Shown: in pieces, positions 5,003 to 52,013 of the stretch
How the letters are laid out: every line of letters begins with the position of its first letter
How positions within the stretch are numbered: the first letter of the stretch is position 1
Assembly: GCA_902557605.1 (NCBI GenBank)
Contig: CACEAQ010000001.1
Location: 7,963-71,962, forward strand
Length of the DNA: 64,000 nucleotides
From: an uncultured Pelagibacteraceae bacterium
GTDB lineage: Bacteria; Pseudomonadota; Alphaproteobacteria; Pelagibacterales; Pelagibacteraceae
Direction of reading: 5' to 3'
The notes under the pieces: model-generated
What the model was told of the DNA's origin: nothing
Databases searched by the model: none
The model's input: the letters and a program-made list of their open reading frames with translations, nothing else
Made by a program: the position numbers and the translations under genes

Positions 5003-6270
5003 TGGAAAAGAAAGATATCATTCAGTCATTTAAAGACAGTTTGTTTACAGGCTTAATTGCTTTAGCTTTGTTTGGTCCAATAGTAGGTTTAAGAACTGTA
5101 TCAAAAGGTGAAGGGCTATTCATTACTCCACAATGGGGAGTAGTTTTTTTTCTTGTTGGATTATGTATTTTGGGAAGATTTTTAATTAATATTAATTCTG
5201 CAAGAAGAACAGAACTTAAAATTTTTTCAACACTGTCATCTAAGTTTTCTAGTATTACCGAGGATAAAGCTAAGCATTTTGCAATTACTGGTATTTTGTT
5301 TGCAGTAATATTTCCATTTCTACCATTTACTGACAGATACTTTATGGATGTAGCAATAATGATTTTAACTTATATCATGTTAGGATGGGGTTTAAACATT
5401 GTAGTTGGTTTAGCTGGTCTTCTTGATTTAGGCTATGTAGCTTTTTATGCAGTCGGCGCTTATTCTTACGCACTTATTGCCACTACGTTCGGTTGGTCTT
5501 TTTGGATTTGTTTACCTTTGGCTGGAGTGTTTGCAGCTTTTTTTGGAATTTTACTTGGTTTTCCAGTTTTAAGATTAAGAGGAGATTATCTTGCGATTGT
5601 TACTTTAGGATTTGGAGAAATTATAAGAATTATTTTGATCAACTGGTATGAGGTAACAAATGGACCTGACGGAATAACAGGTATACCGCGACCATCTTTT
5701 TTTGGATTACCTTTTAAAAGATCTCCAGATGAGGGGGAAACAAGTTTCCATTTGTTTTTCAATCTTGAATATTCAACAATGCATCGAATAATATTTCTAT
5801 ACTATTTAATTTTAGTATTGGCCTTGATAACGAATTACTTCACGCTAAAGATAAGAAAACTTCCTGTTGGTAGAGCATGGGAAGCTTTAAGAGAGGATGA
5901 GATCGCTTGTAAATCTTTAGGAGTAAATCCTACGAATACAAAACTAACTGCTTTTGCGATTGGAGCTATGTTTGGTGGTTTCGCTGGTTCATTTTTTGCA
6001 ACGCGACAGGCATTTATAAGTCCAGAAAGTTTCACATTTATTGAGTCTGCAATTATTGTTGCAATTGTTGTACTTGGCGGCATGGGCTCACAAACTGGAG
6101 TTGTTCTTGCATCAATTTTCTTAATTGGAATAACAGAAATGTTTAGAGATTTAGAGCAATTTAGAATGATCGCTTTTGGTGGAGCGATGGTTTTAATTAT
6201 GGTGTTTAAACCAAAGGGAATATTAGCAAACAGGAAGCCAACTATTCTTATGCACGGAGATAAGAAATGA
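5002..6270 (+). CDS. livM: Branched-chain amino acid ABC transporter permease
   Basis: GLNIVVGLAGLLDLG, LRLRGDYLAIVTLGFGE, GRAWEALREDE. Confidence 0.95.
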   Translation: MEKKDIIQSFKDSLFTGLIALALFGPIVGLRTVSKGEGLFITPQWGVVFFLVGLCILGRFLININSARRTELKIFSTLSSKFSSITEDKAKHFAITGILFAVIFPFLPFTDRYFMDVAIMILTYIMLGWGLNIVVGLAGLLDLGYVAFYAVGAYSYALIATTFGWSFWICLPLAGVFAAFFGILLGFPVLRLRGDYLAIVTLGFGEIIRIILINWYEVTNGPDGITGIPRPSFFGLPFKRSPDEGETSFHLFFNLEYSTMHRIIFLYYLILVLALITNYFTLKIRKLPVGRAWEALREDEIACKSLGVNPTNTKLTAFAIGAMFGGFAGSFFATRQAFISPESFTFIESAIIVAIVVLGGMGSQTGVVLASIFLIGITEMFRDLEQFRMIAFGGAMVLIMVFKPKGILANRKPTILMHGDKK

Positions 6271-7058
6271 GCAATTTATTATCAGTAGAAAATTTAACAA
6301 TGAAGTTTGGTGGCTTGACCGCAATAGATGATTTAAGCTTTGATGCAAAAAATAATCAAATTACTTCCATTATTGGACCTAATGGTGCAGGGAAAACTAC
6401 TGTATTTAATTGCCTGACAGGATTTTATAAGCCTACCAATGGTCAAATGTTTTTACACAAAGAAGATAACAAAATTTCACTAAGAAAATATACTGACTTT
6501 AAAATAGCTCATGTTGCTAAAGTAGCTAGAACTTTTCAAAATATTAGACTGTTTCCAGCAATGTCAGTTCTTGAAAATTTGTTAGTCGCTCAACATAATG
6601 AATTAATGGTAGCTTCTGGTTACTCTTTATTTGGTTTACTTAATCTTAAAACCTATAGAGATAAAGAACAGCTGGCAGTTGATAAAGCGAAGTACTGGTT
6701 AGATATTATTGGTTTAACTCTTAGAGCAGATGATAATGCAGGTGATCTACCTTACGGAGATCAAAGAAAATTAGAAATTGTTCGTGCAATGTGTATTGAA
6801 CCAAGGTTATTGTGTTTAGATGAACCAGCTGCAGGATTAAATCCAAAAGAGTCAGCTGAACTAAATAAACTTTTAAAATTTATTAAAACAGAAAAACAAA
6901 CAGGAATTTTATTAATTGAACATGATATGAGTGTGGTAATGGGAATTTCCGACCATGTTGTTGTTTTAAATTATGGTAAAAAAATATTTGAAGGAACAGC
7001 CGAACAAACTAAAAATAGCAAAGAGGTTATTGAAGCTTACCTAGGAGTTGATGAATAA
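6267..7058 (+). CDS. livG: Branched-chain amino acid ABC transporter ATPase
   Basis: Walker A GPNGAGKT, ARTFQNIRLF, LDEPAAG, IEHDM. Confidence 0.95.
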   Translation: MSNLLSVENLTMKFGGLTAIDDLSFDAKNNQITSIIGPNGAGKTTVFNCLTGFYKPTNGQMFLHKEDNKISLRKYTDFKIAHVAKVARTFQNIRLFPAMSVLENLLVAQHNELMVASGYSLFGLLNLKTYRDKEQLAVDKAKYWLDIIGLTLRADDNAGDLPYGDQRKLEIVRAMCIEPRLLCLDEPAAGLNPKESAELNKLLKFIKTEKQTGILLIEHDMSVVMGISDHVVVLNYGKKIFEGTAEQTKNSKEVIEAYLGVDE

Positions 7059-7777
7059 TGCTTAAGATTTCTAATGTTGAAACTTTTTACGGAAAAATTC
7101 AAGCTCTCAGGGGTGTTGATCTTGACATAAATGATGGTGAAATTGTTTCTTTAATCGGCTCTAATGGAGCAGGTAAATCAACTTTACTGATGACAATTAG
7201 TGGAGTGAATAAAGCTAAAAGAGGAAATATAGTTTTCAATGGTGAAAATATTGAGAATAAAGACCCTCACAAAATAGTTGATATGGGTATTTGCCAAGTT
7301 CCAGAGGGGAGAAGAATATTTTCAAGACTAACTGTAGAAGAAAATCTAAGATTAGGAGCCCATGCCAACGAAAAAGGGAAGTACTTTGAGAATGATATTA
7401 AGGAAATTTATGATTTATTTCCTGTTTTAAGTGATAGAAAGACACAAAGAGGCGGAACACTTTCAGGAGGAGAACAGCAAATGTTGGCGATAGGAAGAGC
7501 ATTAATGAGTAAACCTAAAGTACTTTTATTAGATGAACCTTCGTTAGGAATAGCACCTAAACTGGTAAATCAAATTTTTGTTTCAATAAAAAATATTAAT
7601 AAAGAAAAAAATGTTACTATTTTTTTAGTTGAACAAAATGCCAAAAAGGCTTTGGAGCTTGCTGATAGAGCATATGTTTTAGTAAACGGAAAGGTGACCA
7701 TAAAGGGTCCTGGTCAAGAGTTACTTAAAAATAAAGACATTCAAGCCGCTTATCTTGAAGGTGGAGCAAAAAATTAA
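7058..7777 (+). CDS. livF: Branched-chain amino acid ABC transporter ATPase
   Basis: GSNGAGKS, VPEGRRIF, LSGGEQQM, LVEQN. Confidence 0.95.
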   Translation: MLKISNVETFYGKIQALRGVDLDINDGEIVSLIGSNGAGKSTLLMTISGVNKAKRGNIVFNGENIENKDPHKIVDMGICQVPEGRRIFSRLTVEENLRLGAHANEKGKYFENDIKEIYDLFPVLSDRKTQRGGTLSGGEQQMLAIGRALMSKPKVLLLDEPSLGIAPKLVNQIFVSIKNINKEKNVTIFLVEQNAKKALELADRAYVLVNGKVTIKGPGQELLKNKDIQAAYLEGGAKN

Positions 7778-7855
7778 CTTTTTTTCATATTTACAATATT
7801 GGAATTAAGGTGTTCAATATCAATAATTAATTAATTAACAACAAAGGGAAATAAT

Positions 7856-8959
7856 ATGTTAAGAACGTTCAATAAACTTCTTTCATTAATAGCCGGAACA
7901 TTAATGCTTGCAACAGTATCAGCTAAAGCTGACGTTGTTGTTGCTTCTGCTGGACCTATGTCTGGTCAGTACGCTTCATTTGGTGCTCAGTTAAAAGCTG
8001 GTGCTGAAATGTGGTTAAAGCACGTTAATAAAAAAGGTGGAATTAATGGTGAGAAAGTTAAATTAGAAATCGGAGATGATGCTTGCGATCCTAAACAAGC
8101 TGTTGCTGTAGCCAACAAATTTGCTGGTCAAGGTGTAGCTTATGTTGCAGGTCACTTCTGCTCTGGTTCTTCAATTCCAGCTTCTGCGGTTTACAATGAA
8201 GAAGGAATTATACAAGTTTCACCAGCTTCAACAAATCCAGCGTTAACGGATAAAGGTGGTAAATATACTTTTAGGGTTTGTGGTCGAGATGATCAGCAAG
8301 GTGAAGTTGCTGGTAAATTCTTAGCTGAAAACTACAAAGGTAAAAAAGTAGCTATCCTTCATGACAAAACTGCTTACGGTAAAGGTTTAGCAGATGCGAC
8401 TAGAAAAAACATGAAGAAAGCTGGCCTTAAAGACGCTATGTACGAAGCTTATACAGCAGGTGAAAAAGACTACTCTGCTTTAGTTTCAAAACTAAAATCA
8501 AATAACATTGATGCAGTATATCTTGGTGGTTACCACACAGAAGGTGGTTTGATCGTAAGACAAATGAGAGACCAAGGTATGAAAACTAAATTAATCAGTG
8601 GTGACGCATTAGTTACAGCTGAGTATTGGGATATTACAGGAAATGCAGGCGAAGGTACTTTAATGACTTTCTCTCCAGATCCAAGAAATAACCCTGCTGC
8701 TGCAGATGTTGTAAAAGAATTTAAAGCTGCTGGTATTGAGCCAGAAGGTTATGTTCTTTATTCATACGCTGCGTTACAGGTATTCGAACAAGCTGCTAAT
8801 CAAGCTGGAACAAACGATCCTGCTAAAGTTCTTAAAGTTATGAGAAAAGGTAAGTTTGATACTGTAATCGGTTCACTAAGCTTTGACAAAAAAGGTGACG
8901 TGAGCTTACCAGGTTATGTATTTTATGAGTGGAGCAAAGGTAAATACAAAGAACTGTAA
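7856..8959 (+). CDS. livK: Branched-chain amino acid ABC transporter substrate-binding protein (LivJ/LivK)
   Basis: Signal peptide, DDACDPKQAVAVAN, GHFCSGSSIPAS, GRDDQQG. Confidence 0.93.
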   Translation: MLRTFNKLLSLIAGTLMLATVSAKADVVVASAGPMSGQYASFGAQLKAGAEMWLKHVNKKGGINGEKVKLEIGDDACDPKQAVAVANKFAGQGVAYVAGHFCSGSSIPASAVYNEEGIIQVSPASTNPALTDKGGKYTFRVCGRDDQQGEVAGKFLAENYKGKKVAILHDKTAYGKGLADATRKNMKKAGLKDAMYEAYTAGEKDYSALVSKLKSNNIDAVYLGGYHTEGGLIVRQMRDQGMKTKLISGDALVTAEYWDITGNAGEGTLMTFSPDPRNNPAAADVVKEFKAAGIEPEGYVLYSYAALQVFEQAANQAGTNDPAKVLKVMRKGKFDTVIGSLSFDKKGDVSLPGYVFYEWSKGKYKEL

Positions 8960-20655: not shown

Positions 20656-20662
20656 CCTGTTT

Positions 20663-20807
20663 GTAACGGGAGAGACCATTTTGGCGCCGAAGGAGCAACC
20701 ACCCCGGAAACTCTCAGGCAAAAGGACCGTTACCGTAATAACTCTGGAAAGCAGGCAAAAGCCTCACCGAAGGATTAAATCTCTCAGGTACATAGACAGA
20801 TGGGGTT
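20663..20807 (+). ncRNA. Tandem glycine riboswitch
   Basis: Two aptamers, GGGAGAGA..CGCCGAAGGAGCAA..CTCTCAGG and CTCTGGAAAG..CACCGAAGGA..CTCTCAGG, directly 5' of gcvT. Confidence 0.96.
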
Positions 20808-22308: not shown

Positions 22309-25176
22309 ATGATTGACGACAATTCAAAAGAATTTATTAAAAGGCACATTGGCCCTTCTGATGAAGATCAATCCAAAATGTTGCAATACGTTGGGTACAA
22401 ATCATTAGAGGATCTAATGAGCAATACTGTGCCAGAAAAAATTTTATTAAAAGATGATCTTAAAATCGATCAGCCTATGTCAGAAAATGACGCTTTAAAA
22501 AAATTAAAATCTATATCTAAAAAAAATAAAATCTTTAAAAATTTTATTGGAATGGGATACTATAATTCTATTACACCTAATGTAATTCTTAGAAATATTT
22601 TAGAAAATCCAGGATGGTATACATCTTATACACCTTACCAACCTGAAGTGGCGCAAGGTCGTCTTGAAATGCTTTTAAATTTTCAACAATCAATAATTGA
22701 CTTAACGGGCATGGATATAGCTAATGCTTCTTTGTTAGATGAAGCAACAGCAACAGCAGAAGCAGTAGGTTTAAGCCAGAGATTAGATAAGACTAATTCA
22801 AAAAAAATATTTATTTCAAGCAATTGTAATCCTCAGACAATTGATCTGATAAAGACTAGAACAAATCCTTTTGGTTTAGAATTGATCATTGGTGATGAAA
22901 AAAAAGAGCTTTCAAAAATTAATGAAGATATAATTTGCGGTGTTTTATCTTATCCGGGAACTTTAGGTGAGATAAACGATCCTAGTGAAAGCATCAGTCA
23001 AATTCACAAAAAAAACGGAAAAGCTATTTTGGTTTGTGACTTATTGGCTTTAGCTAGATTAAAAACTCCAGCTGAACTTGGAGCTGACATTGCTGTCGGT
23101 AGTGCTCAAAGATTTGGTATTCCAATGGGTTACGGCGGGCCTCATGCTGCATTTTTTGCTACAAAAGAGGAATTTAAAAGATCAATGCCAGGAAGAATAA
23201 TAGGCGTTTCAAAAGATAGACACGGAAAAAAAGCTTACAGGCTTTCTTTACAAACTAGGGAGCAACACATTCGAAGAGATAAAGCAACAAGTAATATTTG
23301 CACTGCCCAAGCTTTATTGGCTATCATTTCTGCTGCTTTTGCAATTTATCATGGACCTGAGGGAATACTTAAAATTGCGAATAGAACTTCTAAATTAGCA
23401 AAAATCTTTGCTGATAATATTAAAGCAAGCGGTTATCATATTCTATCAGATCATTTCTTCGATACTGTTACGATTAAAACCAATGAAAAAACAAATCCTA
23501 TTTTTGAGGCTGCATTAAAAGAGAATATAAACCTTAGAAAAGTTGATAAAGATCATTTATCTGTTGCGTTTGATGAAGCAAAAAAACTTGACGATGTAAA
23601 CTTATTGTTAAAAATATTTAAAATAACTAAAGTAATTAAACAAGACGTTAAGGTTGAACTAGATAATCTTCCAAAAAATCTTTTAAGAACTTCAAAATAC
23701 TTAACTCATCCAGTATTTAACAAATACCATTCTGAAACTGAGATGCTAAGATATCTAAAGAAACTAGAAGATTGTGATATTGCACTTAATAGATCAATGA
23801 TTGCTTTAGGATCTTGTACAATGAAGCTAAATGCAACAGCAGAATTAATTCCTATTACTTGGAAAGAGTTTTCACTTCCACATCCTTTTGTTCCTACAAA
23901 TCAAATGGAGGGTTATAAGATTCTTTTTAATGATCTGATAAATGATCTGAAAGAAATTACTGGATATGACGCAGTTTCTTTACAGCCTAACTCTGGAGCC
24001 CAAGGAGAGTATGCAGGTCTAATGACTATAAGAAAATTCCATAAAAATAATAAACAAGAAAACCGTAACGTTTGTCTAATTCCGGACTCAGCTCATGGAA
24101 CTAATCCAGCAAGTGCCCAAATGTGTGGGATGAAAGTGGTTGTAGTCAATTGTGATGAAGATGGAAACGTGGATATAGACGACCTTAAAAATAAAGCTGA
24201 AAAACACTCAAAAGACTTAGCTGCTTTAATGGTTACTTACCCCTCTACTCATGGAGTATTTGAAGAAAAAATTATGGATATTTGTGAAGTAATTCATAAG
24301 CATGGCGGACAAGTTTATATGGATGGAGCAAATCTAAATGCACTTGTGGGTGTTGCAAAACCAGGGAAATTTGGACCGGATGTTTGTCATATTAATTTAC
24401 ATAAAACATTTTGCATACCTCACGGTGGAGGCGGACCAGGAATGGGTCCAATTGCTTGCGCTAAACACTTAGCAGATTTTTTACCAACACACGATATTAT
24501 TAAAGAAGCTGGCCCTAAGAATGGAATGGGTGCTGTATCAGCTGCTCCTTGGGGCAGCTCAAGTATACTTCCAATATCTTGGATGTATATAAAAATGATG
24601 GGTGCTGAAGGATTGAAAAAAGCCTCACAAGTTTCAATTTTAAATGCAAATTATATCTCAAAAAAATTATCAAAAGATTATAAAGTTCTTTATACTGGTA
24701 AAAATGGAAATGTTGCACATGAATGCATAATTGATATCCGACCAATCAAAGCTCGCTCAGGTATCTCTGAGGAGGATTTAGCAAAAAGACTAATTGACTT
24801 TGGCTACCATGCTCCAACAATGTCATGGCCTGTTGCCGGTACAATTATGATTGAACCAACTGAAAGTGAAAATTTAGAGGAGATTGATAAATTTTGTAAT
24901 GCACTTATAAAAATTAAAAAAGAAATTAACTTAGTGGAGTCATCAAAATTTGACAAAATAGATAACCCGTTAAAAAATGCACCTCATACTTATGTCGAAT
25001 TAGCTTCAAGTGAGTGGAAGCACGCTTACTCAAGAGAGGAAGCAGCTTTTCCCACTGAGTATGTAAAAAATAATAAATATTGGGCACCAGTTGCTAGAGT
25101 AGATAACGTTTTTGGAGATAGAAATTTAGTATGTTCATGTCCTTCAATGGATGAATATAAAGATGAAGCTGCTTAA
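22309..25176 (+). CDS. gcvP: Glycine dehydrogenase (decarboxylating)
   Basis: YTPYQPE, ASLLDE, KATSNICTAQ, PLP-Lys motif HINLHKTF. Confidence 0.97.
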   Translation: MIDDNSKEFIKRHIGPSDEDQSKMLQYVGYKSLEDLMSNTVPEKILLKDDLKIDQPMSENDALKKLKSISKKNKIFKNFIGMGYYNSITPNVILRNILENPGWYTSYTPYQPEVAQGRLEMLLNFQQSIIDLTGMDIANASLLDEATATAEAVGLSQRLDKTNSKKIFISSNCNPQTIDLIKTRTNPFGLELIIGDEKKELSKINEDIICGVLSYPGTLGEINDPSESISQIHKKNGKAILVCDLLALARLKTPAELGADIAVGSAQRFGIPMGYGGPHAAFFATKEEFKRSMPGRIIGVSKDRHGKKAYRLSLQTREQHIRRDKATSNICTAQALLAIISAAFAIYHGPEGILKIANRTSKLAKIFADNIKASGYHILSDHFFDTVTIKTNEKTNPIFEAALKENINLRKVDKDHLSVAFDEAKKLDDVNLLLKIFKITKVIKQDVKVELDNLPKNLLRTSKYLTHPVFNKYHSETEMLRYLKKLEDCDIALNRSMIALGSCTMKLNATAELIPITWKEFSLPHPFVPTNQMEGYKILFNDLINDLKEITGYDAVSLQPNSGAQGEYAGLMTIRKFHKNNKQENRNVCLIPDSAHGTNPASAQMCGMKVVVVNCDEDGNVDIDDLKNKAEKHSKDLAALMVTYPSTHGVFEEKIMDICEVIHKHGGQVYMDGANLNALVGVAKPGKFGPDVCHINLHKTFCIPHGGGGPGMGPIACAKHLADFLPTHDIIKEAGPKNGMGAVSAAPWGSSSILPISWMYIKMMGAEGLKKASQVSILNANYISKKLSKDYKVLYTGKNGNVAHECIIDIRPIKARSGISEEDLAKRLIDFGYHAPTMSWPVAGTIMIEPTESENLEEIDKFCNALIKIKKEINLVESSKFDKIDNPLKNAPHTYVELASSEWKHAYSREEAAFPTEYVKNNKYWAPVARVDNVFGDRNLVCSCPSMDEYKDEAA

Positions 25177-49945: not shown

Positions 49946-51073
49946 ATGAATTCACTAGGAATTAATAAATCAAAAAAAGAAACAAAAGTAGTTGTTGCAA
50001 TGTCTGGAGGTGTAGACTCTTCCGTTGTAGCTGCTCTAATGAAAGAGGAGGGTTATGATGTCAAAGGTATAACTTTAAAACTTTATGATGATACAAAACA
50101 ATCTAAAGGAGGAAGGCAATGCTGTGCAGGACAAGATATAATGGATGCTAAAAGGGTTTCAGAAAAAATAAATATTAATCACGAAATCCTATATTATCAA
50201 AAAAAATTTAAATCAGAAGTTATAGACTCGTTTATTGATAGTTATGCAGCTGGAGAAACCCCGATTCCATGTGTTCAGTGCAATCAGACTGTAAAATTTA
50301 GAGATTTATTTAAATATGCTAAAGATTTTAAAGCAGATGCATTAGTTACAGGTCACTATGTATCAAGAATTCAAAAAAATGGTCATGCGAGTATGTATAG
50401 AGCTAAAGATATAAATAGAGATCAAAGCTATTTTCTGTTTAGCACAACACAAGAACAGCTTGATTATTTAAGATTTCCTTTGGGAGAAATTGATAAATCT
50501 GAGACAAGATCCATAGCAAAAAAACTAAACTTAAATGTTGCTAATAAACCGGATAGTCAAGATATATGTTTTGTGCCAAATGGTGATTATAGTTCAGTTA
50601 TAAAAAAATACAGACCTGAGTCATTTCAAAAAGGAGACATAGTTGATCTCAATGGAGATAAAATCGGTGAACATCAAGGGATAATTAATTACACAATTGG
50701 TCAAAGAAAAGGAATTAAAATTTCAAGTGAAAAACCTCTTTACGTAATAAATATAAATGCCAATGAGAACAAAGTTATTGTGGGCAATAAAGAAAATTTA
50801 GAAATTAAAGAAATTCAACTTAGAGAATTAAATATTTTGGCAAATAAAGATGAGTTCAACGAAGTTATTAATATAAAAGTTAGATCAACAGGTAGACTTT
50901 TAAAAGCAAAAATAAATCTTATTAAAGATTACGCTCAAGTCGAAATTTTAGATAAAGAAACTGGGATTTCACCGGGACAAGCATGTGTTTTTTATTCAAA
51001 AGATTCTTTTGGGGATAAAGTACTTGGAGGTGGTTGGATAGATAAGACTTTTAATAATAAGTTATCCACTTAA
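49946..51073 (+). CDS. mnmA: tRNA 2-thiouridylase
   Basis: [46 protein letters not shown]. Confidence 0.97.
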
Positions 51074-51143
51074 TTAACATACATTCATAAGACACGCATT
51101 AAGTGATTACAAATATCGATCGCCTATGATTTAATATTTGTAA

Positions 51144-51314
51144 TTAAGAGGCAACTCTTAACTGGCCAATTAAGGAAAAACCGAGAGGTTCAAGCTTAAG
51201 GGGCAGAAAGGTGGACCTAGTAGCGCTAGAATAGTTCATCGGGACGGCTTGGCGGTAGCGCCTAAAACGACGAGCCAAAACTACTAAATTTCTGGGCGAA
51301 AGCCTAGAAATTTA
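51144..51314 (+). ncRNA. Unassigned structured non-coding RNA
   Basis: About 46% GC by hand count; three GNRA-capped hairpins (GCAA, GAGA, GAAA), further stems with G-U pairs on the + strand, possible pseudoknot. Confidence 0.75.
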
Positions 51315-52013
51315 AGTGGTTCTTCTCCAAAAAAATCTTGAAAATAAATAGAAAGTAATTAATCCAACAAAGTAATTCCACTCAAGCGCATGTTTAAATT
51401 GTGTATTACCTTTGGTAACAAGTATAGGCAAACTCAAAATTGCAATTAAAGACAACGAACAAACTAAAATAAATTTTAAAACAAAAACATATTTGACAAT
51501 GTAATCATATAACTTTTTTCTCAATTTATAAAAATGATAAATTAATAATCCTTGCGCAATTAGTTCGAATATTACAAAAAGCAACAATACAATTCTTCTA
51601 AAAAATTTGTAAAGCTGAATATCAAATTTAATTCCTAAAAATATAGAATGAATAATTAAGAAAATTGCTGATAAAATTCCAAATATTTTAAATTTATAAT
51701 TAATATTTGTTCCATTCAAGTTATTGATTAGATTGTTATTCTTTGACCAATAATAATATAAAAGAATACTCGTAAGAAACATTGAGGGTTTAAAAATTAA
51801 AAATTGAGGAAATGTTCTTGCAGCTCTACTAATGGATAAACTTCCATCTAAATAAGGTATTGAAAAATTTGACCTACCAATATGTTCCACGCTAAAAACT
51901 GTGTTTTCAAAGAGTTCATAGTTCTGAGAAATTATTAAACATAAATTAATTGCAATAAAAGGGATTAAGAAAATCCATAAACTTAATTTTCTTATTTGAT
52001 CAATCCCATTCAT
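51312..52013 (-). CDS. Hypothetical multi-pass membrane protein
   Basis: About 6 TM, SISRAAR and LEWN motifs; family not recognised. Confidence 0.65.
   Translation of the reverse strand: MNGIDQIRKLSLWIFLIPFIAINLCLIISQNYELFENTVFSVEHIGRSNFSIPYLDGSLSISRAARTFPQFLIFKPSMFLTSILLYYYWSKNNNLINNLNGTNINYKFKIFGILSAIFLIIHSIFLGIKFDIQLYKFFRRIVLLLFVIFELIAQGLLIYHFYKLRKKLYDYIVKYVFVLKFILVCSLSLIAILSLPILVTKGNTQFKHALEWNYFVGLITFYLFSRFFWRRTT

Follow-up and report, generated by a model that had tools for sequence, protein, structure and literature searches.

We have found that the window, i.e. the whole 64,000-nucleotide stretch of DNA from an uncultured SAR11 (Pelagibacteraceae) genome that was analysed here, carries at positions 51137-51278 of the forward strand what is, practically beyond doubt, a complete, single-copy IMES-2 gene. 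The feature is real, its family is already known, and no new RNA class is introduced. The explanation that best accommodates the whole of our findings, with a probability of roughly 0.85, is that of an autonomous IMES-2 gene module, whose RNA would act in trans through its fold.

RF02035, the Rfam entry that was matched, is IMES-2, which we take to have been published as one of the most abundant non-ribosomal RNAs of SAR11; SAR11 is the most abundant bacterial group of the surface ocean. Shi, Tyson and DeLong, in 2009, and Weinberg, Perreault, Meyer and Breaker, in Nature in the same year, reportedly described the motif from marine metagenomes and metatranscriptomes, and we know of no function that has been established for it so far. 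Our literature search on IMES RNAs, whose reach did not extend to the 2009 Nature description, has returned nothing relevant.

Identity and anatomy of the gene

The search of the window with cmscan against Rfam 15 has matched IMES-2 at 51137-51278 (+) with 148.5 bits, against a gathering score of 54.7 (E = 1.1e-38); positions 1-141 of the 141 positions of the model are aligned, the match is not truncated, and the search of the whole genome returns it identically. A preliminary description of the locus, made from the sequence alone, had presented the RNA as unexplained and had proposed an Rfam search with the IMES motifs first: it is this search that supplies the name, at full length. The coordinates given in that description are all correct, and the island of ~46% GC that it pointed out is evident (the GC fraction rises to 0.49 at 51150-51299, whereas the flanks are at about 0.2-0.33); its statement that tRNA, tmRNA, RNase P and SRP hallmarks are missing agrees with ARAGORN, which detects no tRNA or tmRNA anywhere in the window, and with Rfam, which gives IMES-2 at this position. 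No second Rfam family of substance is matched at the locus, even at E values up to 10, where the matches are unrelated and at chance level. The loop and junction sequences of IMES-2 (GCAA, CGAGAG, GCAGAAAG, AGUAGCGCU and GGUAGCGC) are all present in the alignment of the window to the model, and are invariant or near-invariant within the genus. Elsewhere in the window, the sole other Rfam match is a glycine riboswitch aptamer (RF00504), located at 20657-20739 (+), with 67 bits against a cut-off of 32.

The alignment of 26 loci from the same genus has shown that the sequence from mnmA to the RNA varies, except for short boxes and an extended -10 element, and that an invariant block begins at 51142. 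The features of the gene and of its flanks are the following:

49946-51073, forward strand: mnmA, tRNA 2-thiouridine synthase (Pfam tRNA_Me_trans, 1e-75); flanking gene, outside the RNA gene
51062-51069, forward strand: upstream box A, TTATCCAC, 8 of 9 positions identical to the DnaA-box consensus
51074-51079, forward strand: upstream box B, TTAACA, conserved in every IMES-2 context
51092-51107, forward strand: upstream boxes C (ACACG; ACAAC in most relatives) and D (AAGTGAT, 51101-51107, about -41 to -35 from the inferred start)
51127-51135, forward strand: putative extended -10 element, TGaTTTAAT (TGnTTTAAT), with constant spacing to the RNA in almost all of the 26 same-genus loci
51142-51320, forward strand: IMES-2 RNA, inferred transcript of ~180 nt, from the Rfam match, the invariant block and RNA contigs
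51285-51314, forward strand: terminator hairpin, stem of 13 bp closed by a GAAA loop; no other terminator-like site is listed by the scan
51312-52013, reverse strand: convergent gene of a 233-aa membrane protein with no Pfam family; flanking gene, overlapping the terminator

The ~85 bp upstream of the RNA are conserved in every context where IMES-2 occurs, in the order of box A, box B, an A-rich spacer of variable length, box C, box D and the -10; across the family, box A reads T(T/A)ATCC(A/C)CA, box B, located 9 nt further on, reads TT(A/C)ACA, box C reads ACAAC and box D reads AGTGAT. A likeness to the DnaA box, the consensus of which is TTATNCACA, is seen in both box A and box B, and at least one copy agrees with it at 8 of 9 positions in every genus examined. 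The two boxes (51062-51079) overlap the last codons of mnmA and its stop codon (51071-51073); they are kept in all IMES-2 contexts, including loci where the upstream gene is other than mnmA, and they are absent at the mnmA end of a genome that has no IMES-2 at that locus. The composite A/B motif is unique in its own genome, with a position weight matrix (PWM) score of 26.1 against 17.9 for the next best site.

In the window, box A forms ~10 extra C-terminal codons of mnmA (51040-51073, ending KLST); in relatives without the module at the mnmA locus, mnmA stops 2-4 residues past the GGWI sequence. The upstream open reading frames seem simply to run into box A of an inserted or retained module.

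Boxes C and D have a high information content in the alignment of 91 distinct upstream regions, with the AGTGAT of box D being replaced by GGAGAT or AGCGAT in the two most divergent genera. Box D is not a standard -35 element, because its spacing to the -10 is too long, and the sigma-70 scan misses the site at 51127-51135 because there is no -35. We infer this site to be an extended -10 promoter; a -10-like hexamer is located at the same position in other genera.

Two further roles for the boxes have been considered and rejected: an RNA hairpin between box A and box D, since GUGAU changes to GAGAU in two genera with box A unchanged to match, and box A as a mark of a replication origin, since the GC skew is positive throughout the window, so that neither oriC nor a terminus is located here. 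The search of the window's own genome (56% complete) with PWMs of the upstream boxes has returned no convincing second promoter, most of the matches being located inside open reading frames. Separately, the sole intergenic second match of the box C/D motif (ACAACTAAAAAGTGAGA) is situated on contig C6 of the genome, at ~24655-24720, and is followed by a GC-rich palindrome; both flanking genes are encoded on the other strand, and the site could be another small transcription unit.

At the other end of the gene, the arms of the terminator hairpin are wholly replaced and yet complementary in L010, L017 and L026, three divergent relatives, and also in other genera; in the latter, the hairpin is followed by a clear T-run. 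The hairpin overlaps the stop codon of the convergent gene (51312-51314), and thus it is probably common to the two genes, ending both transcripts. An anti-terminator pairing of CAGAAA in the core with UUUCUG in the terminator arm has been rejected, as it is absent in relatives that have other terminators.

Parts of the IMES-2 stretch are contained in 12 sequencing runs on record as RNA, some of which assembled it from only 2-3 million letters. The contigs of four runs from four studies have been mapped to positions 50900-51500 of the window, bearing in mind that contigs are no proof of transcript ends, strand or level: their cover is confined to 51142-~51320, where summed word depths range from 10^3 to almost 10^5, and is zero at 50900-51141, on the side of mnmA, and at 51341-51500. 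The earliest contig begins at 51142, while loose ends with poly(A) occur at 51283, 51288 and 51320. This pattern is what a discrete and very abundant RNA of ~180 nt, with far less expressed neighbours, would give, and the cover over the RNA, next to empty flanks, bears out the transcription that the preliminary description had proposed to look for in metatranscriptomes. The depths agree with a place of IMES-2 among the most abundant non-ribosomal RNAs of SAR11.

The same contigs bear on the suggestion, also made in the preliminary description, that the RNA is a ribozyme, whether of a self-cleaving or of some other catalytic kind. Its compact tertiary fold, in which GNRA loops occur along with a contact resembling a pseudoknot, would suit a ribozyme, and the loose ends at 51283-51288 may weakly indicate an internal 3' end; however, the contigs span the whole core with no preferred break, no known ribozyme family, self-cleaving ones included, is matched at the locus in the Rfam search (E up to 10), and the repeated or mobile context that is typical of small self-cleaving ribozymes is missing, which leaves catalysis very improbable.

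Conserved helices and the contact between the two large loops

In order to compare the fold across the family, a covariance model has been built from 74 sequences, and 100 sequences (98 distinct), two divergent genera included, have been aligned. In the four helices of the Rfam model, P1-P4, 94.1% of the cells are paired, against 30-43% in slid controls, and 35 of the 45 pairs have changed on both sides, so that the covariation expected in the preliminary description is present. The helices are the following:

51144-51161, forward strand: P1, hairpin of 7 bp with a GCAA tetraloop; 100% of cells paired, 5 of 7 pairs changed on both sides
51162-51206, forward strand: P2, long hairpin; 96% of cells paired, 13 of 15 pairs changed on both sides
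51210-51240, forward strand: P3, hairpin of 8 bp with a 15-nt loop, L3; 8 of 8 pairs changed on both sides
51246-51276, forward strand: P4, hairpin of 9 positions with a 13-nt loop, L4; 7 of 9 pairs changed on both sides

P2 is composed of a basal CUG-CC/GG-CAG stem, a middle stem, a conserved GAAA/CAAG internal loop and a distal AACC-GAGA-GGUU stem-loop. Two non-standard pairs occur within the helices: pair 51169-51199 of P2, which is A-G in the window, and column pair 141-160 of P4, which is G-A or A-G in 98 of 98 sequences. The invariant bases of the RNA are located in the loops and junctions, while the stems covary.

Most of the hairpins that had been read from the single sequence are backed by the comparison of the 98 distinct sequences: the hairpin at 51144-51161 (P1), ttaag/cttaa around aacc-GAGA-ggtt (in P2), ggtggac/gttcatc (P3), ggctt/gagcc (P4) and the terminal 13-bp hairpin at 51285-51314. 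Two inner stems that had been drawn inside P3 and P4 fare differently: the ctag/ctag stem is lineage-specific, with its two outer pairs being 49.5% paired across the family, and the ggcg/cgcc stem, 83% paired, clashes with better-supported covarying pairs at the top of P4 and with the helix between the loops that is described below.

The assignment of the RNA to the forward strand, which had been made from GNRA loops and G-U pairs, holds as well: the folding energy of this strand is -66.5 kcal/mol (z = -6.0, equalled in 0 of 200 shuffles), against z = -3.1 for the reverse strand. A protein-coding reading would have to use the reverse strand, where an open reading frame of 44 codons does exist at 51144-51278; it has no Pfam family, the substitutions are compensatory in the RNA helices instead of following a synonymous pattern, and the strand opposite to it is the one that folds far better, by which the coding reading is effectively refuted.

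The large loops of P3 and P4 both carry the sequence GUAG-NN-C, where the two central letters change in concert between the loops. The residues concerned form a kissing helix between positions 51223-51228 of L3 (GCGCUA) and positions 51256-51261 of L4 (UAGCGC). The two central pairs occur in six complementary versions, with no exception among the 100 sequences: in the 98 distinct sequences, one is CG in 85, UA in 11 and AU in 2, the other is GC in 74, AU in 22 and UA in 2, and in none are they unpaired. Two more pairs are invariant, and the two outer pairs are weaker, being paired in 91 and 75 of the 98 sequences. When the letters of L4 are shuffled, the observed pairing is reached in 0 of 10,000 trials. 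In the 23 cases where the sequence is not palindromic (CA-UG, UG-CA, UU-AA and AA-UU), the two loops are complementary in all 23 and never identical, which excludes that L3 and L4 are two copies of one protein site, or that each loop is merely its own palindrome.

Several genera contribute to these variants, with two types in the genus of the window, three each in two other genera and more elsewhere; by our estimate, which is not a tree-based count, the pairs may have switched independently at least about nine times. The loop-loop duplexes are computed at -7 to -11 kcal/mol. We take this comparison as showing that the loops of P3 and P4, placed side by side, pair with each other through a core of 4-6 bp; the pairing could be intermolecular, within a dimer, instead of intramolecular. 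We do not claim this contact as new to the literature.

A stand-alone structured RNA with tertiary structure, as anticipated in the preliminary description, is thus borne out, with the actual contact being the helix between the two GUAGCGC loops. The pseudoknot that had been proposed instead, between UAGUAG (51218-51223) and CUACUA (51281-51286), reaches full complementarity in no more than 3 of the 47 distinct combinations of loop and tail, and CUACU in the genus of the window extends the terminator stem.

The extent of the pairing also bears on the possibility that IMES-2 is a regulatory small RNA that base-pairs with mRNAs in trans. The RNA is small and stand-alone, has a promoter and a terminator of its own, and is left with a short, single-stranded, A-rich tail after P4; but nearly all of the RNA is engaged in covarying helices or in the loop-loop helix, the 3' tail is unconserved outside the genus, so that a conserved seed of at least 7 nt is missing, and the abundance is far above that of typical regulatory small RNAs. 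We consider such targeting improbable.

Distribution and genomic contexts of the module

IMES-2 occurs as one copy in its own genome (56% complete). Among 36 further genomes of the same genus, most of which are incomplete, 25 carry it above the cut-off, while it is found in 0 of 24 genomes of the sister family; in a broader sample, it is present in 81 of 150 genomes and in 14 of the 19 sampled genera of Pelagibacteraceae. In one genus its occurrence is patchy (21 of 77 high-quality genomes), and a set of 60 genomes of the sister family has again returned none. Several complete genomes are among the carriers, and the cultured SAR11 strain HIMB114 is reported to have the RNA too. A pattern scan of one genome per species (185,579) is in agreement, as the carriers among the matches listed are all Pelagibacteraceae or Pelagibacterales. 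IMES-2 is, therefore, restricted to the family and accessory; the RNA had been thought to be retained in a streamlined genome, and it is indeed present here, but the patchy genus and the sister family do not fit with general retention.

A phage origin has been considered and rejected, as the search of IMG/VR with two patterns has returned no IMES-2, its single match (L219) being located inside an open reading frame of 1049 aa. One locus, L043, in a genome with 4% contamination that is filed under a divergent genus (G171, genus g15), has an IMES-2 of the type of the window's genus beside a split mnmA, and may be a contaminating contig.

The module, ~270 bp in length, is situated in at least four contexts: between mnmA and the 233-aa gene, between recombinase and ogt genes, between SNase and SRAP genes, and with SelO and RmuC genes. 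In most genera, the order is mnmA, IMES-2 and the convergent 233-aa gene; in one genus, SLT and SNase genes are located upstream and a convergent SRAP gene downstream, and another genus has IMES-2 with SelO and RmuC. In the patchy genus, IMES-2 is preceded in 11 of 12 examined loci by a tyrosine recombinase gene, a dif-like inverted repeat (TGATAA and TTATCA, 7 nt apart) and a gene for a two-helix micro-protein, and is followed by minimal ogt/MGMT and EamA genes. Counterparts without the module are also available: in a complete genome without IMES-2, the mnmA stop is directly against the end of the 233-aa gene, and, in the same genome, the micro-protein stop is right before the start of ogt; the window's own genome has, on contig C4 (~7100-8500), a locus with the recombinase, the site, the micro-protein and ogt, where IMES-2 is missing.

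This locus on contig C4 deserves a description of its own: its tyrosine recombinase is 61% identical to the one that adjoins IMES-2 in the other genus, and it is followed by a dif-like repeat (CGATAAC, 5 nt, ATTATCG), then by AAGTGATT and the micro-protein, the stop of which is overlapped by the ATG of ogt/MGMT. Terminal inverted repeats of the module have been searched for and rejected as not convincing, the two ends having only CCAC/GTGG in common, inside the ends of two flanking genes.

The contexts bear directly on the possibility that IMES-2 is a cis element of a neighbour, i.e. a 3' untranslated region or terminator of mnmA, or an antisense regulator of the convergent 233-aa gene. The position of the RNA between these two genes in most genera and the overlap of its terminator with the convergent stop codon are what such an element would exhibit; however, IMES-2 is preceded by a conserved promoter of its own, RNA contigs cover neither mnmA nor the 233-aa gene, against a thousands-fold depth on the element, and the module is found apart from both genes in three contexts, while the two genes abut in its absence. 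A cis role is, in our judgement, hardly credible.

In most genera, the 233-aa membrane protein is conserved next to mnmA whether IMES-2 is present or not; some relatives have longer versions of it, of ~355-385 aa. Its gene is missing from the neighbourhood of IMES-2 in the three other contexts; as it abuts mnmA where there is no IMES-2, and as IMES-2 occurs where this gene does not, the protein is not a dedicated partner of the RNA.

Box D bears some likeness to a half-site of the recombinase, at 10 of 11 positions at one locus and at 7 of 12 in the window's own genome, and the recombinase whose dif-like arm AGTGATAACA resembles adjoins the cassette in one genus. It is a long shot that the boxes TTATCCACA/TATTCACA (DnaA-like) and AGTGATAACA (like the dif-like arm of the SAR11 tyrosine recombinase) are candidate protein sites that tie the relocatable ~270-bp cassette to replication and recombination proteins, with its kissing domain docking a dimeric core protein.

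Mode of action and comparison with known systems

IMES-2 resembles neither a cis-regulator nor an antisense RNA that works by base-pairing. A riboswitch or cis-leader has been sought around the RNA, and no co-oriented downstream gene is found, the terminator being a separate covarying hairpin; the preliminary description was right to set aside a riboswitch leader, as the next gene is convergent and the neighbours differ among the contexts. By exclusion, on which our reading of the mode of action rests, IMES-2 would act in trans, by virtue of its three-dimensional shape: the gene downstream is convergent, no neighbour is common to the contexts, the module is cleanly absent from otherwise identical loci, and the invariant bases are located in loops and junctions. 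The RNA may bind, and so titrate or scaffold, a conserved cellular factor, to which we give somewhat less than an even chance; the factor would probably be a protein of the core machinery and, less likely, a small ligand.

Our search for a partner gene has compared one genome with IMES-2 (G130, 97% fetched) with a close, complete genome that lacks it (G083), and no co-occurring partner has been found. Of the 74 open reading frames that are unique to G130, mostly in one hypervariable island, four have homologues in the window's genome, i.e. an FkbM methyltransferase, an FG-GAP/ASPIC protein, a 229-aa protein without assignment and one weak match, and none of them looks RNA-binding. The 229-aa protein has been rejected as a partner: in the patchy genus, both are present in 16 genomes, IMES-2 only in 5 and the protein only in 9, and the protein is also found in 14 of 47 genomes of a sister-family genus without IMES-2 and in 0 of 4 genomes of a genus with IMES-2, a distribution that reflects kinship. 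Unrelated to the search for a partner, the FG-GAP/ASPIC-UnbV gene and the 229-aa gene form an adjacent pair (L348:13848-15976 and contig C10, ~5515-7627), whose occurrence is uneven in two families of the order, with 25 of 77 genomes having it in one genus and 14 of 47 in another.

The outcome of this search, where no partner gene co-occurs with the RNA, fits with a target in the core machinery, and equally with a ligand-binding or catalytic RNA. IMES-2 is dispensable in many SAR11 lineages, which would be odd for a regulator of the core machinery.

An orphan ligand-binding RNA, i.e. a riboswitch-like aptamer without an expression platform that senses or buffers a small molecule or ion in trans, is the next reading in order of probability. 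Two parallel hairpins clamped by a loop-loop helix, together with conserved junction bases, recall the purine-type aptamers, the invariant bases cluster in junctions and loops, and a high abundance would suit a buffer. On the other hand, a closing stem for a three-way junction is missing, there is no regulated gene, since the downstream gene is convergent and the neighbours are variable, and the gene context suggests no ligand. We regard a ligand-binding role as unlikely, and the binding of a conserved cellular factor remains our preferred, tentative reading.

The 6S RNA resembles IMES-2 under that preferred reading, as an abundant, stand-alone, structured RNA that acts in trans by binding a core protein, RNA polymerase. 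The two differ in shape, 6S being a long rod with a central bubble, and in that IMES-2 is accessory. The window has no match to 6S RNA (RF00013), and the fold at the locus is a multi-domain shape of four hairpins. RF00013 is matched in 0 of 151 Pelagibacteraceae genomes (the window's own and 150 others, 57 high-quality ones among them), while controls, the Caulobacter genome among them, have been matched; 6S is either missing from the family or too divergent for the model. A role of IMES-2 as a replacement for 6S has been rejected, since RF00013 is matched in none of these genomes, with or without IMES-2, and the two are thus not complementary in occurrence.

The value of the IMES-2 locus lies in its refined anatomy, not in novelty. 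The handles that it offers are the exact limits of the gene, a promoter region that accompanies the RNA from context to context, near-identical loci that form clean pairs with and without the module, the accessory status of the module, and a loop-loop contact with natural compensatory variants, which can guide the design of probing, mutagenesis and pull-down experiments.

Among other known systems, the OLE RNA and its membrane partner OapA resemble the arrangement in the window, where a highly expressed, ornate orphan RNA is located next to a membrane-protein gene; unlike OLE and OapA, the adjacency of IMES-2 and the 233-aa gene is not that of a conserved RNA-protein gene pair. Purine-type aptamers consist of two parallel hairpins that are joined by a loop-loop helix, and in the kissing complex of ColE1 RNA I and RNA II, which is bound by Rop, hairpin loops are joined by Watson-Crick pairing. 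IMES-2 is similar to the former in its two parallel hairpins held by a loop-loop helix, and differs in having no closing P1 stem, expression platform or regulated gene; it is similar to the latter in the Watson-Crick pairing between hairpin loops, and we know of no Rop-like partner for it. With P3 and P4 being 8 and 9 bp long and connected by a joiner of 5-7 nt, the pseudo-symmetric helix between their loops would be readable by a ligand or by a dimeric protein. The closest comparison is with the RF02035 family itself, where the full model, the four helices, the GCAA and GAGA loops, both GUAGCGC loops, the marine SAR11 host and the high RNA abundance are all recovered in the window; in the model as searched, both large loops are unpaired, whereas here they pair with each other, and otherwise nothing essential differs.
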